Source: Escherichia phage Killian
Sequence record: OQ446694.1
Direction: 5' to 3' (one strand)
DNA length: 64,000 nucleotides
Part shown: positions 2,244 to 48,587 of the stretch, piece by piece
Layout: each line of letters begins with the position of its first letter
Numbering within the stretch: the first letter of the stretch is position 1
Program-made: the position numbers and the translations under genes
Notes under the pieces: model-generated
Databases searched by the model: none
The model's input: the letters and a program-made list of their open reading frames with translations, nothing else
What the model was told of the DNA's origin: nothing

Positions 2244-5384
<3,141 letters not shown>

Positions 5385-16368: not shown

Positions 16369-17787
16369 TTATGGATAGGTATAGATGATACCAGTTTCTA
16401 AAGCAGTTTTATGAATGATGTATCCATTACGTGATTCTTGAACATCAACTTCTGGATAGTCTTTCATCATCTTCTGAAGAGTGTAACGATGCAGGTAGTA
16501 TTTACTGTCTGGATCTTCAGTTTTCCAATCTTTACCTTCTTCGGTCATTTTTTGGATTTCATCCATAACCCACCAACCGCACCAGATATAAGCTGAAGTA
16601 CGATGTGGAAGAGGATGAACATAAGGCAATTCACCTTCTGGTTCCGGAGCAACTTTATCAGTTACCTGAACTTGGCCTGTTGCTTTAACTGTTTTACTAT
16701 CATAGTCGGTTGCTGTAACGACAGCAGTAACTTCAATAGTTTGACTTCCAATAGATGAGGTGTCAACGGTGTATACGTTAGTTGACCCTTCTACAGGAGA
16801 AGAATCTTTCTTCCATGAGTATTCGATTTGTGCTTCTTCTGGAGCATCAGTGACATTAGCCGTAAATGTAGCCGAAGCATCTTGCTGAACGTTAATAGAA
16901 GGAGGAGTCAATGTAACCTGCGGATTCATTGTCTTCTTATTAACTGTCAATGATACTTCATTAGAAGTAACTTCCTTTTCATTGTAATTTTCAGCCGTTA
17001 CTTGGGCTACACACTTAACTGTTTTAGCTCCAACTGTGGTAGGAGTATAGTTAAATGTAGTAGTAGTTTCTCCATCGACCAGAGAACCGTCAACATACCA
17101 CTGATACGTAGCAGACGCTCCTGGTGGCTGTGAATCCAAGGCAGCAGTAAATTGAACTGGGGTTCCAATTACTCCGGCAGCAGGATTAGCAGGAGTTACG
17201 GCTAACGTAGTTGTCTGTGTTTTCTTATTAACTGTTAATGATACTTCATTAGAAGTAACTGTTTTTGCGTCATAATCTGTTGCTGTTACTTGAGCTACAC
17301 ACTTGATTTTTTTAACTCCGCTTGTGTCAGGAGTGTAATTGAATGTAGCGTCAGTTGCTTCGTCTACAGGAGAACCGTCAACGTGCCATTGATACGTAGC
17401 GTTTGCACCTGATGGCTGTGAAGCTAAGGCAGCGGTAAATTCAATTGGAGTTCCAATCACTCCAGCATCAGGGCTACCAGGAGTTACAGCTAAAGTAGTT
17501 GTTTGTGTTTTATTTTTGACTGTGATAGTTGTCGTAGTTTCTGCTGTTTCAGGATCAGCTTCTGGAACTGTATTTGTTGCAACCACCTTAATAGTCTTTT
17601 GACCTGCAGGTCCTTTTAGTACATAGCTAAAAGTTGCTTCAGCTCCATCCTGTGGAACATTATCTACACTCCAAGCATAGGTAATAGTTCCACCTTCAGT
17701 TTGACCACTGGGTGTAGCAGTAAACTGCTTGGTTTCATCAATAACTCCTGTTGGGGTTTTAGGAGTTATATCAACTGTAAAAGTCAT
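16369..17787 (-). CDS. hoc: Highly immunogenic outer capsid protein Hoc, with an extra Ig-like domain
   Basis: 472 aa against 376 aa in T4; N- and C-termini match T4 Hoc; contains two about 96-aa near-identical Ig-like repeats. Confidence 0.9.
   Translation of the reverse strand: MTFTVDITPKTPTGVIDETKQFTATPSGQTEGGTITYAWSVDNVPQDGAEATFSYVLKGPAGQKTIKVVATNTVPEADPETAETTTTITVKNKTQTTTLAVTPGSPDAGVIGTPIEFTAALASQPSGANATYQWHVDGSPVDEATDATFNYTPDTSGVKKIKCVAQVTATDYDAKTVTSNEVSLTVNKKTQTTTLAVTPANPAAGVIGTPVQFTAALDSQPPGASATYQWYVDGSLVDGETTTTFNYTPTTVGAKTVKCVAQVTAENYNEKEVTSNEVSLTVNKKTMNPQVTLTPPSINVQQDASATFTANVTDAPEEAQIEYSWKKDSSPVEGSTNVYTVDTSSIGSQTIEVTAVVTATDYDSKTVKATGQVQVTDKVAPEPEGELPYVHPLPHRTSAYIWCGWWVMDEIQKMTEEGKDWKTEDPDSKYYLHRYTLQKMMKDYPEVDVQESRNGYIIHKTALETGIIYTYP
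16942..17517 (-). repeat. Tandem duplication of a 288-bp Ig-like domain unit inside hoc
   Basis: Protein repeats KNKTQTTTLAVTP...SNEVSLTV occur twice back to back; DNA shows the same about 40-nt string near 16930 and 17220. Confidence 0.85.
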
Positions 17788-18477: not shown

Positions 18478-18527
18478 AATATTTCCTCAGTATAAATATA
18501 GATATATTTATTACATGGTATTTAAAC

Positions 18528-20039
18528 ATGACTGACATTAAAGTACATTTTTATGATTTTAGTCACGTGAGAATTGATTGCGAAGAAAGTACATTTCATG
18601 AACTCCGTGATTTCTTTAGCTTTGAAGCTGATGGGTATCGTTTTAATCCGAAATACAAATATGGCCACTGGGATGGACGAATTCGTCTTTTAGATTATAA
18701 TCGCCTTCTTCCATTCGGTTTAGTCGGGCAAATTAAAAAGTTCTGTGATAACTTTGGCTATAAAGCCTGGATTGACCCGCAAATTAACGAAAAAGAAGAA
18801 TTATCAAGAAAAGATTTTGATGAATGGCTTTCTAAATTAGAAATCTATTCAGGAAATAAAAGAATTGAACCGCATTGGTATCAAAAAGATGCAGTGTTCG
18901 AAGGATTAGTTAATCGTCGTAGAATTCTTAATCTTCCAACATCCGCAGGTAAATCTTTAATTCAAGCTTTGCTCGCTCGGTATTATTTGGAAAATTATGA
19001 AGGCAAAATTCTTATCATTGTTCCAACAACTGCTCTGACAACTCAGATGGCTGATGACTTTGTTGACTATCGTTTATTCAGTCATGCAATGATAAAGAAA
19101 ATCGGCGGTGGAGCATCAAAAGATGATAAATATAAAAATGATGCACCGGTCGTTGTTGGTACATGGCAAACTGTAGTAAAACAACCAAAAGAATGGTTCT
19201 CACAGTTTGGAATGATGATGAATGATGAATGTCATCTTGCTACAGGAAAAAGTATTTCATCTATCATATCAGGTTTAAATAACTGTATGTTTAAATTTGG
19301 TTTGTCTGGTTCATTGCGCGATGGCAAAGCTAATATCATGCAGTATGTTGGAATGTTCGGTGAAATATTTAAGCCAGTAACGACCTCTAAATTAATGGAA
19401 GATGGACAAGTAACTGAGTTAAAAATTAATAGTATTTTTCTTCGCTATCCCGATGAGTTCACTACTAAATTAAAGGGAAAAACTTACCAAGAAGAAATAA
19501 AAATTATTACTGGGCTCAGTAAAAGAAATAAATGGATCGCTAAATTAGCTATTAAGCTTGCGCAAAAAGATGAAAATGCTTTTGTCATGTTTAAACACGT
19601 ATCGCACGGTAAAGCTATTTTCGATTTAATTAAAAATGAATACGATAAAGTTTATTACGTATCAGGGGAAGTTGATACCGAAACCCGCAATATAATGAAA
19701 ACCTTAGCTGAAAACGGTAAAGGAATAATTATAGTAGCTAGTTATGGTGTATTTTCTACCGGTATTTCAGTTAAAAATCTGCATCACGTTGTTTTAGCAC
19801 ACGGTGTTAAATCTAAAATTATTGTATTGCAAACAATAGGTCGCGTATTACGTAAGCATGGTTCTAAAACAATCGCAACAGTCTGGGACCTCATAGATGA
19901 CGCGGGCGTAGTTTCTAAATCAAAAACATCTTCTAAAAAATACTCGCATTTAAACTATCTTTTAAAACATGGACTTGATCGTATTCAGCGTTATGCTGAT
20001 GAGAAGTTTAATTATGTGATGAAAGAGGTTAAACTTTGA
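18528..20039 (+). CDS. uvsW: UvsW RNA-DNA / DNA helicase
   Basis: 503 aa; helicase motifs (DECH box, TSAGKS Walker A-like). Confidence 0.9.
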   Translation: MTDIKVHFYDFSHVRIDCEESTFHELRDFFSFEADGYRFNPKYKYGHWDGRIRLLDYNRLLPFGLVGQIKKFCDNFGYKAWIDPQINEKEELSRKDFDEWLSKLEIYSGNKRIEPHWYQKDAVFEGLVNRRRILNLPTSAGKSLIQALLARYYLENYEGKILIIVPTTALTTQMADDFVDYRLFSHAMIKKIGGGASKDDKYKNDAPVVVGTWQTVVKQPKEWFSQFGMMMNDECHLATGKSISSIISGLNNCMFKFGLSGSLRDGKANIMQYVGMFGEIFKPVTTSKLMEDGQVTELKINSIFLRYPDEFTTKLKGKTYQEEIKIITGLSKRNKWIAKLAIKLAQKDENAFVMFKHVSHGKAIFDLIKNEYDKVYYVSGEVDTETRNIMKTLAENGKGIIIVASYGVFSTGISVKNLHHVVLAHGVKSKIIVLQTIGRVLRKHGSKTIATVWDLIDDAGVVSKSKTSSKKYSHLNYLLKHGLDRIQRYADEKFNYVMKEVKL

Positions 20040-20728
20040 ATTATAAATTAATATATGATAATTTAATTAATAGAGCCCAGAATCGGGCTCGCCTTAATGG
20101 ATACACTGAAACTCATCATATAATTCCTAGATGTATGGGTGGTACAGATGATAAGTGTAATTTGGTAGAACTAACAGCTGAAGAGCATTTTATAGCTCAT
20201 AAACTTTTAGCTAAAATTCATCCAAACCATTACGGTATAATTAAAGCCGTTATATGTATGGGAATGAATTCAAATACTCATGAAAGACACGTTAATAAAT
20301 CTTACGCCTGGGAACGTCGTAAAATGGCAAAACTTCAATCAGGTGAAGGTAATCCATTTTACGGAAAACACCATACGGAAGAACATAAACAATATATGTC
20401 AAAACTCATGAAAAATCGTCCAATTACGTGGGGAAGTAAAATTAGTAAAACTAAAAGAATGAACCCAACAAAATGGACTGAAGAAGCTAAAAGATTGCAT
20501 TCTATCAATCAATCAGGTAAAAATAATGGCATGTATGGAAGGAAACATTCCGCTAAATCTATTCAGAAAATTAAAGATAACATGCCAGATAATTCAGGAG
20601 CTAATAACCCAGCTGCTAAACCTATAGAAGTAAATGGTGTTAAGTATAAATGCATGAAAGATGCTTCTAAAGCTACTGGATTATCAATGTACAAACTAAG
20701 AATACTTAGAAAAACAGTTAATTTATAA
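20036..20728 (+). CDS. HNH homing endonuclease, MobE-like, with NUMOD-like repeats
   Basis: N-terminus ...YTETHHIIPRCMGGTDDKCNLVELTAEEHFIAH closely parallels the mobE product at 47946-48587; apparent TTG start overlapping the uvsW stop with AGAGG about 8 nt upstream. Confidence 0.8.
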   Translation: MNYKLIYDNLINRAQNRARLNGYTETHHIIPRCMGGTDDKCNLVELTAEEHFIAHKLLAKIHPNHYGIIKAVICMGMNSNTHERHVNKSYAWERRKMAKLQSGEGNPFYGKHHTEEHKQYMSKLMKNRPITWGSKISKTKRMNPTKWTEEAKRLHSINQSGKNNGMYGRKHSAKSIQKIKDNMPDNSGANNPAAKPIEVNGVKYKCMKDASKATGLSMYKLRILRKTVNL

Positions 20729-20740
20729 GGGCTTCGGCCC
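20729..20740 (+). terminator. Small hairpin GGGC-TTCG-GCCC after the HNH gene
   Basis: 4-bp GC stem with tetraloop; weak; directly abuts the uvsW.1 ribosome-binding site. Confidence 0.3.
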
Positions 20741-20753
20741 TTTGGAGAAAAAG

Positions 20754-20984
20754 ATGTTACTAGAATTTAAACAATTTCTTTATGAAGCTTCTATTGATGA
20801 ATTTATGGGTAAAATTGCCTCTTGTCAAACAATAGAAGGTCTAGAAGAACTTGAAGCTTATTATAAGAAAAGAGTTAAAGAAACTGAATTAAAAGATACT
20901 GATGACATCTCAGTCAGAGATGCTTTGGCAGGAAAAAGAGCTGAATTAGAAGATTCAGACGATGAAGTAGAAGAAAACTTTTAA
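20754..20984 (+). CDS. uvsW.1: UvsW.1 small acidic helical protein
   Basis: 76 aa from the ATG at 20754 (track start 20742 is TTG), preceded by GGAG; acidic; T4 UvsW.1 is 76 aa. Confidence 0.7.
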   Translation: MLLEFKQFLYEASIDEFMGKIASCQTIEGLEELEAYYKKRVKETELKDTDDISVRDALAGKRAELEDSDDEVEENF

Positions 20985-47949: not shown

Positions 47950-48587
47950 TTAGAATCCTTAAATTTACATTTATCATAATGCCATCTTAAAGCATTGCCT
48001 TTATTAACTTTCTTGCCACAATGCGGACAAGGCGGATACTCTGTACCTTGCTTAGTTCTCAAAGAGATCAAATCACGAGTTTCTTTAGTATGAGGAACAT
48101 CTCTTGTCGGAGAGATTGTACCATACATCGGATTAAGCACGCCGACTTTAGCAGCAGCTATATTCTTTTTAGCTTCTTCGGTTTTAGGTTTTCTCATGCG
48201 AGCTAAATGCTCTTTGGTAAATTTCCTTCCTTTAAGAGCTCTACTTATCTTTTCTCTGGTTTCTATAGAAACTTCACGTCCTATAGCAGCTTCAGATAAA
48301 CGTCGTCTACCTAATTCGTATAGTTGAGAAGAAATTTTATATGAGCGATTTTTACCAGTCAAGCACATTAAACCAAAAGCTTTCTTTAATCCTGGCGTGT
48401 CATATATTTTACATAAAAGCCAATGAGCTATAAAATGCTCTCTACCTGTTAATTCAACTAAATTTTCTTTATCATCAGAACCTCCCATACATCTAGGGAT
48501 TATATGATGAGTCTCTTTATATCCTAATAAAGGTTCCCGGGTTTTAGCCCGGGAAATTAAACTATTATATACGTTTTGATAATTCAT
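47946..48587 (-). CDS. mobE: HNH homing endonuclease MobE
   Basis: 213 aa; HNH motif ETHHIIPRCMGGSDDKENLVELTGREHFIAH; located between nrdA and nrdB as T4 mobE. Confidence 0.85.
   Translation of the reverse strand: MNYQNVYNSLISRAKTREPLLGYKETHHIIPRCMGGSDDKENLVELTGREHFIAHWLLCKIYDTPGLKKAFGLMCLTGKNRSYKISSQLYELGRRRLSEAAIGREVSIETREKISRALKGRKFTKEHLARMRKPKTEEAKKNIAAAKVGVLNPMYGTISPTRDVPHTKETRDLISLRTKQGTEYPPCPHCGKKVNKGNALRWHYDKCKFKDSK

Follow-up and report, generated by a model that had tools for sequence, protein, structure and literature searches.

A probable Mob-type HNH homing endonuclease gene inserted near the end of uvsW in Escherichia phage Killian

What lies at the boundary of uvsW and uvsW.1 in Escherichia phage Killian, and does it have the characteristics of a mobile gene? 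In phage T4, uvsW runs directly into uvsW.1. In the stretch of DNA analyzed here (64,000 nucleotides of sequence record OQ446694.1, hereafter the window), the listing of open reading frames (ORFs) includes a frame of 230 codons on the plus strand that is situated at this boundary. An earlier note, prepared from the sequence alone, proposed that the ORF codes for an HNH homing endonuclease that is initiated at a TTG codon, that it is absent from T4, and that it marks a new homing site. The comparison with T4 bears out the stated absence, and the other proposals are considered below. The coordinates of the features are collected in Table 1.

Table 1. Features of the uvsW region and the mobE paralogue, with positions in the window.
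Feature	Position	Strand	Basis or remark
T4 late-promoter consensus TATAAATA, perfect match	18491..18498	+	30 nt 5' of uvsW; pattern scan
uvsW, 503 aa helicase	18528..20039	+	Pfam UvsW_N 3.9e-43, ResIII, DEAD, Helicase_C; alignments to T4 and T6
Block A, 37 nt of uvsW	19910..19946	+	about 23 mostly non-synonymous differences, carriers vs most non-carriers
Block B, 73 nt, end of the resident-type uvsW coding sequence	19952..20024	+	allele tabulation and alignments
Shine-Dalgarno-like AGAGG (contains GAGG)	20023..20027	+	8 nt 5' of the TTG, within the final uvsW codons
Inserted segment, 689 nt	20025..20713	+	alignments to non-carrier alleles such as T4
HNH homing-endonuclease ORF, 230 aa	20036..20728	+	homology, motif residues, domain profiles, AlphaFold, dN/dS
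GC-rich hairpin GAGCCC-AGAATC-GGGCTC	20073..20090	+	inside the endonuclease ORF, codons 13-19
Displaced native uvsW tail ACAGTTAATTTATAA (T-V-N-L-stop)	20714..20728	+	now forms the 3' end of the endonuclease ORF (four codons and stop)
Native hairpin GGGC-TTCG-GCCC, uvsW/uvsW.1 intergenic	20729..20741	+	unaltered by the insertion
uvsW.1, 76 aa from ATG with GGAG upstream	20754..20984	+	Pfam UvsW-1 PF11637, 7.3e-30
mobE paralogue, 169 aa	48078..48587	-	TAATGA overlap with the preceding gene, as published; internal hairpin 48555-48534

The predicted protein belongs to phrog_655, a family annotated as 'homing endonuclease', with a match that covers residues 1-217 (E 4e-61). It carries an HNH beta-beta-alpha motif at approximately residues 23-60, and the residues H28, N42, H51, and H55 of this motif do not vary among 69 aligned homologues. 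Loss of the catalytic residues on alignment had been named in the earlier note as an outcome that would count against its reading, and all four are retained. The motif can be aligned residue for residue with those of a group II intron maturase, McrA, and Cas8-HNH, and a search with the family profile matches the HNH domain of McrA (E 2.8e-4). When scored as a single sequence, the protein falls short of the Pfam thresholds for HNH PF01844 (16.7 bits versus a gathering score of 21.4, E 0.008) and for the I-TevI-type DNA-binding domain PF20987 (14.7 bits versus a cut-off of 27). The AlphaFold model (pLDDT 85.6) includes a beta-hairpin followed by a helix at residues 24-60, which is the beta-beta-alpha arrangement.

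The portion of the protein that follows the HNH motif includes two NUMOD3 modules, at approximately residues 94-122 and 157-185 (Pfam PF07460, 1.3e-13), and a helix-turn-helix resembling that of I-TevI at approximately residues 190-226. NUMOD-like repeats and a likely C-terminal helix-turn-helix had both been proposed from the letters of the sequence, and profile searches now give these assignments a firmer footing. Specifically, the last 90 or so positions of the family profile match the I-TevI DNA-binding domain (PDB 1i3j) at E 1.1e-9, and the same domain is the top Foldseek match of the model (probability 1.00, E 0.07). Searches with the whole model returned weak matches only, and I-HmuI was not retrieved.

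Among copies of the gene in Tequatrovirus, dN/dS is 0.05-0.06 with dS of approximately 0.15 (window and L004 versus T6 and L007), and values of 0.12-0.36 are obtained when the window copy is compared with copies in other genera. The reading frame keeps its full length in the window copy and in each of six further carrier records that were examined individually (T6, L004, L007, HY03, KMB39, and pSe_SNUABM_01). Judged by these comparisons, the gene is intact and under purifying selection. A chance ORF or a pseudogene is ruled out by the homology, the invariant motif residues, and the dN/dS values.

The ORF was originally described as sitting between uvsW and uvsW.1. It is real, and its location can be refined because alignments place the insertion point inside uvsW, on the 3' side of codon K499 and four codons before the end of the gene. 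The insert opens with GAGGTTAAACTTTGA, which gives uvsW a new tail (E-V-K-L-stop) and also carries the GAGG ribosome-binding site and the TTG start codon of the endonuclease ORF. The final four codons of uvsW and its stop (20025-20039) therefore come from the insert. The displaced native tail at the other end is identical to the end of uvsW in the non-carriers T4, L005, L006, LH2, OES_C-2, and SP21535. An identical architecture is observed when phage PSD2002 is compared with its non-carrier relative L010, and thus the displaced tail is present in two lineages. Orthologues that do not carry a displaced tail terminate in ...LRNL-stop, ...LLK, or ...LRKLR. The start codon of uvsW.1 is most likely the ATG at 20754, as annotated in relatives, rather than the TTG at 20742 that was listed mechanically.

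The absence of an ATG near the 5' end had already been remarked on, and the earliest in-frame ATG is indeed codon 34, which lies within the HNH motif. A TAA is present in the same frame at 20030-20032. Thus, the TTG at 20036 is the only start that would yield the conserved N-terminus, NY(K/Q/E)..., which in orthologues comes directly after the start codon. The TTG (20036-20038) and the uvsW stop codon TGA (20037-20039) form a TTGA overlap that is preceded by the AGAGG sequence, both where the earlier note had placed them. An xTGA overlap at this position provides the start codon of every orthologue, which is ATG in three lineages and TTG accompanied by GAGG in two. The GAGG sequence is also kept in PSD2002, which represents the other TTG-type lineage, and is missing from the ATG-type orthologues. 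Initiation at TTG and the proposed coupling of endonuclease translation to that of uvsW are supported by this common overlap among orthologues and by the RefSeq annotation of T6, which uses the same TTG start.

The perfect late-promoter consensus ahead of uvsW is the sole such site upstream of the endonuclease gene, and so it probably drives a transcript that spans uvsW, the endonuclease gene, and uvsW.1. A scan of the 3' part of uvsW with two T4 patterns revealed neither an exact TATAAATA site nor a MotA box. We also considered a promoter dedicated to the endonuclease gene, but the only candidates are two late-promoter look-alikes that match at 7 of 8 positions (20042 and 20645), the first of which is downstream of the start codon, and this possibility was rejected.

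Early in the ORF there is a GC-rich hairpin (Table 1). Hairpins of differing sequence occupy the equivalent place in all four of the further orthologue lineages that were examined, as well as in the mobE gene of the window, and the counterpart in mobE has been described as a weak intrinsic terminator (PMC2988022). A hairpin common to the entire family was rejected after the equivalent 60 nucleotides were folded for 69 distinct IMG/VR homologues, which gave a mean dG of -7.1 kcal/mol compared to -7.8 kcal/mol for controls (median z -0.26). Given that these homologues exhibit no excess of hairpins, the structure is specific to the clade at the uvsW site and to mobE rather than a trait of the family.

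A non-ATG start codon, the lack of a dedicated promoter, and an intragenic hairpin close to the start are also features that might be expected if the gene were a silent remnant that is not usefully translated and is decaying. We consider this explanation very unlikely. The ORF is full length in every carrier examined individually, dN/dS is about 0.06 at a dS of 0.15, the catalytic residues are invariant, and a good ribosome-binding site accompanies the TTG in both lineages that use this codon.

The relationship of the gene to known mob genes also must be considered. A likeness between the N-terminus of the protein and that of the mobE product of the same window was part of the original proposal, and it proves to be more extensive than claimed, with 38% identity over 183 amino acids. 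The mobE product also matches phrog_655 (7.9e-56). Moreover, the labels attached to the uvsW-site gene in several deposited records include 'homing endonuclease', 'mobD' (PST), and 'mobile endonuclease E' (W143). The latter two labels and the PHROG held in common with mobE could indicate that the gene is a relocated mobE or mobD, which would make it orthologous to one of the mob genes of T4. However, the window carries its own mobE at the canonical site, and the two proteins are 38% identical and differ in their C-terminal regions, so we rejected the gene as an orthologue of mobE. In addition, the closest relatives (55-70% identity) whose position was checked are all located at the uvsW site, as expected of a separate site-specific lineage. 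In this comparison, which was made with mobE, these observations leave a relocated mob gene with very little probability.

The gene is carried by 48 of 740 matching phage records (approximately 6%), including T6, and is always located at the uvsW site. These counts rest on the GenBank phage collection because a scan of IMG/VR for UvsW.1 yielded only 14 loci. Comparison of the junction across T4-like genomes, as recommended in the earlier note, therefore recovers both carrier and non-carrier alleles. Universal presence among T4-like phages, which the note had said would weigh against its reading, is not what is observed, as the gene is polymorphic and is absent from the six non-carriers named above. 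Its placement is of the Mob type in that the gene is free-standing, lies in the same orientation between conserved genes, and is patchy among related genomes. Orthologues with 55-70% identity occupy the same site in T4-like phages of Klebsiella, Morganella, and other Escherichia phages, and fidelity to the site across genera is evident from Roth16, PSD2002, Rgz1, and the metagenome locus L025. The Tequatrovirus copies are 97-99% identical, which is similar to the genomic background, and thus recent horizontal spread is inseparable from vertical descent with loss.

The suggestion of a new homing site does not hold. The same gene is present at the same place in the deposited records of T6, PST, ACG-C40, HY03, W143, and others, orthologues exist in other genera, and uvsW is a published target of SegE (PMC2988022). 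The gene is therefore already known from deposited records and is a mobile element of an ordinary kind, if a neatly constructed one. Our search of the literature found no paper that describes or tests an endonuclease at uvsW/uvsW.1. The window lacks segE. All four combinations of segE and the uvsW-site gene exist, and the two elements assort independently, which indicates that the cassette sits on different backgrounds.

The sequence adjoining the insert differs between carriers and non-carriers. Identity is 77-84% in the last 200 nucleotides of uvsW and 95-100% elsewhere in the identity profile, and the first 100 nucleotides of the right flank, on the uvsW.1 side, are 98-100% identical to every carrier and non-carrier allele compared. 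Flanking divergence of the Mob type is thus present and one-sided, and it represents a population signature that is distinct from measured co-conversion. Two blocks can be distinguished within the divergent tract (Table 1). Block A is loosely linked to the endonuclease gene, as the non-carriers LH2 and OES_C-2 have the carrier type of this block, and OES_C-1 and OES_C-3 are assumed to have it as well on the basis of identical search matches. Block B and the gene remain linked throughout the alleles examined. It carries nine fixed synonymous differences (19952-20018) relative to five tabulated non-carrier alleles, which are identical to one another in this block and with which T4 agrees.

A carrier-type tract with at least 95% identity is found in 48 records, which is the same as the number of carriers. 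Four non-carrier records are the sole intermediates, and the two of them that were examined, LH2 and OES_C-2, are recombinants with a break at 19947-19952. These characteristics make Block B a candidate co-conversion or immunity tract and a candidate target region. Alternatively, the tract could accompany the gene simply because the two lie close together on a segment that was imported once from a divergent phage, rather than through repeated homing or immunity. No local divergent tract is visible in the PSD2002 and Roth16 lineages because their available non-carrier relatives are approximately 70-76% identical throughout.

We consider it probable that the ORF represents an intact, selectively maintained, and free-standing HNH homing endonuclease gene of the T4 'Mob' kind, carried as a compact mobile cassette four codons before the end of uvsW, and we infer that its product is active and promotes homing. 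The gene, which would have no promoter of its own, would be transcribed late together with uvsW. Ribosomes that terminate on uvsW would re-initiate at the UUG codon and yield small amounts of the protein. The hairpin located 37 nucleotides into the ORF possibly damps expression further. During a mixed infection, the enzyme would bind the 3' end of uvsW in phages that lack the gene, at a site that is long and asymmetric, and would nick or cut the DNA there. MobA, MobE, and I-HmuI are nickases. Recombinational repair would then copy the cassette, always with the adjoining 70-90 nucleotides and often with the next 40 nucleotides as well, whereas the allele of the carrier would be shielded by the insertion itself and by silent substitutions.

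The gene might instead be a domesticated or stranded endonuclease that is made and under selection but no longer homes. It could be kept for another role, such as excluding competing phages or stimulating recombination around uvsW-uvsY, or because a clean deletion would damage the end of uvsW and the expression of uvsW.1. Strong purifying selection shows that the gene has a function, but not which function, and a long stay at a single site in several genera is as compatible with persistence as with mobility. Furthermore, the cassette now provides the stop codon and tail of uvsW, and thus its imprecise loss would be harmful. The same argument has been made for other T4 endonucleases (PMC2988022), and a benefit other than homing was recently shown for SegB (PMC13096335), which we count in favor of domestication. 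Even so, the patchy 6% distribution, the occurrence on both segE+ and segE- backgrounds, and the sharp one-sided tract are all predictions of homing, and there is no pointer to any specific alternative role. Domestication therefore seems improbable to us, and we favor a gene that still homes.

We advance more tentatively, and with slightly more doubt than belief, a fuller model in which the mobile element is a self-contained 'gene-end replacement' cassette that inserts into the coding region of an important repair helicase. Its first 15 nucleotides would serve as a surrogate uvsW C-terminus and stop while also providing its own ribosome-binding site and a weak UUG start, and the displaced host tail would become its own C-terminus. 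The early RNA hairpin would have been kept through changes that vary its sequence and would throttle expression. With SegE at the opposite end, uvsW would then have a homing element on either side, each assorting independently of the other, and the mosaic ends of the gene would owe their form to the co-conversion tracts of the two.

If correctly interpreted, the gene extends the T-even catalogue by one Mob-type endonuclease, for which T6 offers a ready experimental system in which the predicted target is the last 90 or so nucleotides of uvsW in phages such as T4. The locus also provides a tidy example of a selfish gene that resides inside a host coding region without harming the host gene. The general picture is unchanged, as this type of element, overlap coupling, and the population signature have been established for MobE, SegE, SegG, and others.

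Mob and Seg endonucleases have been described as promoterless cassettes that exhibit overlap coupling, nicking, and co-conversion (PMC2988022). T4 MobE resembles the uvsW-site endonuclease in belonging to the same PHROG, with the HNH motif and one NUMOD3 region located within the 38%-identity alignment. Both genes are promoterless cassettes with a start codon that overlaps the stop codon of the upstream gene, and both carry a GC-rich hairpin approximately 40 nucleotides into the ORF (PMC2988022). However, T4 MobE is encoded between nrdA and nrdB, which is another locus and presumably offers another target. The uvsW-site protein has a longer C-terminus that includes a second NUMOD3 and the I-TevI-like helix-turn-helix. 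Its gene uses TTG rather than ATG, has a hairpin that is not followed by a run of U nucleotides, and sits inside the end of the upstream gene, for which it supplies the last codons.

T4 SegE is likewise the product of a free-standing endonuclease gene that flanks uvsW and is associated with a diverged adjoining tract of uvsW (PMC2988022), and segE+ and segE- alleles share 74-86% identity over the first 200 nucleotides of uvsW. In contrast to the uvsW-site protein, SegE is a member of the GIY-YIG family, and its gene is located between inh and uvsW, at the opposite end of uvsW. The C-terminal 80 or so residues of the uvsW-site endonuclease match the minor-groove helix and helix-turn-helix of I-TevI, but its nuclease domain is HNH rather than GIY-YIG. 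Another HNH cassette within a host coding region, that of T4 mobA and the gene 60 bypass, is said to have been described by Bonocora et al. in 2011 (PNAS 108:16351, as cited in PMC10236363), where extra sequence reportedly allows the host product to be made. The cassette in uvsW achieves this much more simply, by replacing four codons and the stop; the host gene is not split, and no ribosomal bypass is involved.

The 230-codon ORF found in the ORF listing of the window is genuine and, as judged from its sequence, forms an intact HNH homing-endonuclease cassette of the Mob type, and its activity, target, and homing are predicted. Pfam identifies UvsW upstream and UvsW.1 downstream, and T4 carries no gene between the two, which bears out the arrangement described in an earlier note. 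The product matches PHROG 655 'homing endonuclease' (4e-61), as does that of mobE, a separate HNH paralogue in the window, and the two share 38% identity over 183 residues, so the proposed MobE likeness holds. Identification of the gene as mobE itself was rejected, because it represents a distinct site-specific lineage at this level of identity and the window has its own mobE.

Two NUMOD3 modules (Pfam, 1.3e-13) account for the NUMOD-like repeats that had been noticed. The Pfam HNH match is sub-threshold (16.7 bits vs a cut-off of 21.4). However, H28, N42, H51, and H55 are among the invariant positions in an alignment of 69 homologues, and thus no HNH catalytic residue has been lost. The family profile reaches the McrA HNH domain (2.8e-4) and the I-TevI DNA-binding domain (1.1e-9). 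An AlphaFold model (pLDDT 85.6) includes a strand-strand-helix at residues 24-60 and ends in a beta-hairpin and two helices, and whole-chain structure searches gave weak matches and did not recover I-HmuI. The ORF is, by its substitution ratios, under purifying selection, with dN/dS values of 0.05-0.06 between Tequatrovirus copies (dS ~0.15) and 0.12-0.36 between the window copy and those of other genera.

The start codon proposed earlier, a TTG that overlaps the uvsW stop and has AGAGG 8 nt upstream, agrees with the window sequence. Because a TAA precedes it in frame and no ATG occurs in this frame before codon 34, which falls midway through the nuclease motif, this TTG is the sole start that gives the conserved N-terminus. 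The RefSeq annotation of the T6 gene uses the identical TTG. For uvsW.1, the mechanical ORF list gives a TTG start, and relatives are annotated with an ATG preceded by GGAG.

Coordinates of the cassette and associated features (window numbering unless stated)
Feature	Position	Strand	Detail
HNH endonuclease ORF	20036-20728	+	
Insert	20025-20713		689 nt
TAA in ORF frame	20030-20032		
HNH-gene TTG	20036-20038		
uvsW TGA	20037-20039		
uvsW.1 starts	20742-20756		TTG 20742; ATG 20754
HNH-gene hairpin	20073-20090	+	37 nt into ORF
Perfect late promoter	18491		TATAAATA, just upstream of uvsW
Late-promoter near-match	20042-20049	+	TATAAATT
Late-promoter near-match	20645-20652	+	TATAAATG, ~100 nt upstream of uvsW.1
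Block A of uvsW tract	19910-19946		~23 differences, mostly non-synonymous
Block B of uvsW tract	19952-20018		nine differences, all synonymous
LH2 and OES_C-2 block types	19900-20024		window equivalent
LH2 and OES_C-2 breakpoint	between 19947 and 19952		
inh/uvsW intergenic region and first ~200 nt of uvsW	18478-18730		
mobE	48078-48587	-	
mobE hairpin	48555-48534	-	
Hoc-like ORF	16369-17787	-	472 aa
Extra DNA in HY03	2008-2132 of its locus (L106)		~98 bp
T4 RefSeq junction	4170-4200 of its locus (L002)		

Alignment with alleles lacking the gene defines both ends of the insert. The native uvsW gene ends ATG AAA / ACA GTT AAT TTA TAA (K-T-V-N-L-stop), with a GGGC-TTCG-GCCC hairpin just downstream. 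The window version of uvsW ends ATG AAA / GAG GTT AAA CTT TGA, where the final four codons and the stop are insert-derived, and these 15 nt also supply GAGG, the ribosome-binding site, along with the TTG. The HNH ORF runs past the insert into the unaltered native ACA GTT AAT TTA TAA and stops there. Escherichia phage PSD2002 has a matching arrangement: GAGG and TTG are again present at its uvsW end, which reads K-E-V-Q-I-stop, and its endonuclease ends M-K-Q-V-D-L-stop, which matches the uvsW tail of the non-carrier relative L010. Orthologues without a displaced tail end shortly past a conserved [YH]K[LI]R.L motif. All orthologues begin with an xTGA overlap with uvsW: three have an ATG start that lacks a good ribosome-binding site, and two have a TTG start paired with GAGG. 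The predicted TTG start and termination-reinitiation coupling draw their strongest available support from this comparison.

The T4 RefSeq record (NC_000866) retains an outdated reading, AATTTA-ATAAGCTTCGG, in which uvsW and uvsW.1 are joined as a single 587-aa CDS, whereas every other allele examined has AATTTATAAGGGCTTCGG at the junction. The fusion is a known sequencing error (PMC1524935).

A 1.8-kb locus query matched 740 phage records, only 48 of which cover it fully, and thus the gene is polymorphic. A protein search likewise found 48 records at 95% identity or above. Carriers include T6, PST, ACG-C40, HY03, W143, and UFV-AREG1, and several carrier records label the ORF 'homing endonuclease', 'mobD', or 'mobile endonuclease E'. 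Orthologues with 55-70% identity occupy exactly this junction in four other lineages: Klebsiella phage Roth16, PSD2002, Morganella phage Rgz1, and a metagenomic contig. Moreover, SegE, which is encoded at the opposite uvsW end in T4, has been published as an endonuclease that targets uvsW (PMC2988022). Therefore, the suggestion of a new homing site is unsupported. The uvsW-site endonuclease is already annotated in many genomes, and literature searches returned no paper describing or testing it.

The non-carriers T4, L005, and L006 are 95-100% identical to the window through most of uvsW, except in T4 over the first 200 nt, which are segE-linked, and 98-100% identical over the first 100 nt right of the insert. 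Over the last 200 nt of uvsW their identity drops to 77-84%, whereas the carriers T6, L004, and L007 keep 94-100%. Base-by-base comparison divides this tract into two blocks. The block B differences are fixed between all carriers and five tabulated non-carriers, which are mutually identical here, and T4 agrees with the latter in a separate alignment. In the phage collection, 48 records match the 236-nt tract at 95% identity or more, which equals the carrier count. Only four records are intermediate, all of them non-carriers: LH2 and OES_C-1, -2, and -3. Block types were read in LH2 and OES_C-2, which combine a carrier-type block A with a non-carrier block B, and OES_C-1 and -3 are known from identical search matches. 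The LH2 and OES_C-2 alleles could be recombinants, gene-loss products, or the allele type that the cassette first entered.

We infer that such a tract, tightly linked and lying on one side only, is the pattern that a free-standing homing endonuclease with a target in the neighbouring conserved gene should leave in a population. On this reading, block B would be a segment that is always co-converted, one that confers carrier immunity, or both. A similar picture would arise from plain linkage if the segment had entered in a single import from a divergent phage.

The segE gene is present between inh and uvsW in T4, T6, and LH2 and absent from the window, L004-L007, OES_C-2, and SP21535, and thus segE and the HNH gene are found in each of the four possible presence/absence combinations. 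Between alleles with and without segE, identity over the first 200 nt of uvsW is 74-86%, and among those without it 99-100%. This region, with the adjoining intergenic sequence, is a second endonuclease-linked tract, at the opposite end of uvsW from the first.

A Hoc-like head decoration ORF exceeds the 376 aa (1131 nt) annotated in T4, and it probably has one extra domain because its translation contains repeated Ig-like blocks. Relative to the window, HY03 and SYGD1 carry extra DNA between the uvsY.-2 and uvsY.-1 homologues, where LH2 has a shortened ORF, and this interval near uvsY is a further small site of variation.

In pattern scans, the sole perfect match to a T4 late promoter in the vicinity precedes uvsW, and the 3' part of uvsW has no exact late-promoter or MotA-box match. 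Thus, the HNH gene appears to be a cassette that lacks its own promoter and is transcribed together with uvsW. Hairpins of different sequence occur at the position matching that of the GC-rich HNH-gene hairpin in Roth16, PSD2002, Rgz1, the metagenomic contig, and the window mobE (nt ~35-60 of the uvsW-site orthologous ORFs), with unrelated stems and, in three cases, GAAA loops. The hairpin is not general in the wider family, given a mean dG of -7.1 kcal/mol for 69 IMG/VR homologues vs -7.8 kcal/mol for control windows. Hairpins at these common codon positions may serve as expression attenuators.

For a well-known kind of element, the analysis adds modest new details: the replacement of the gene end, the linked tract of silent sites, and the hairpin specific to the clade. 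The T4 mobE hairpin has been published as a weak terminator (PMC2988022), whereas the HNH-gene hairpin lacks a following U-run. The HNH ORF also contains two 7-of-8 matches to the late-promoter consensus, and the downstream one could in principle feed uvsW.1, much as promoters embedded in segG feed gene 32. Finally, the overlap between uvsW and the HNH gene resembles the UAAUGA arrangement of MobE (PMC2988022), which is also seen for the window mobE.
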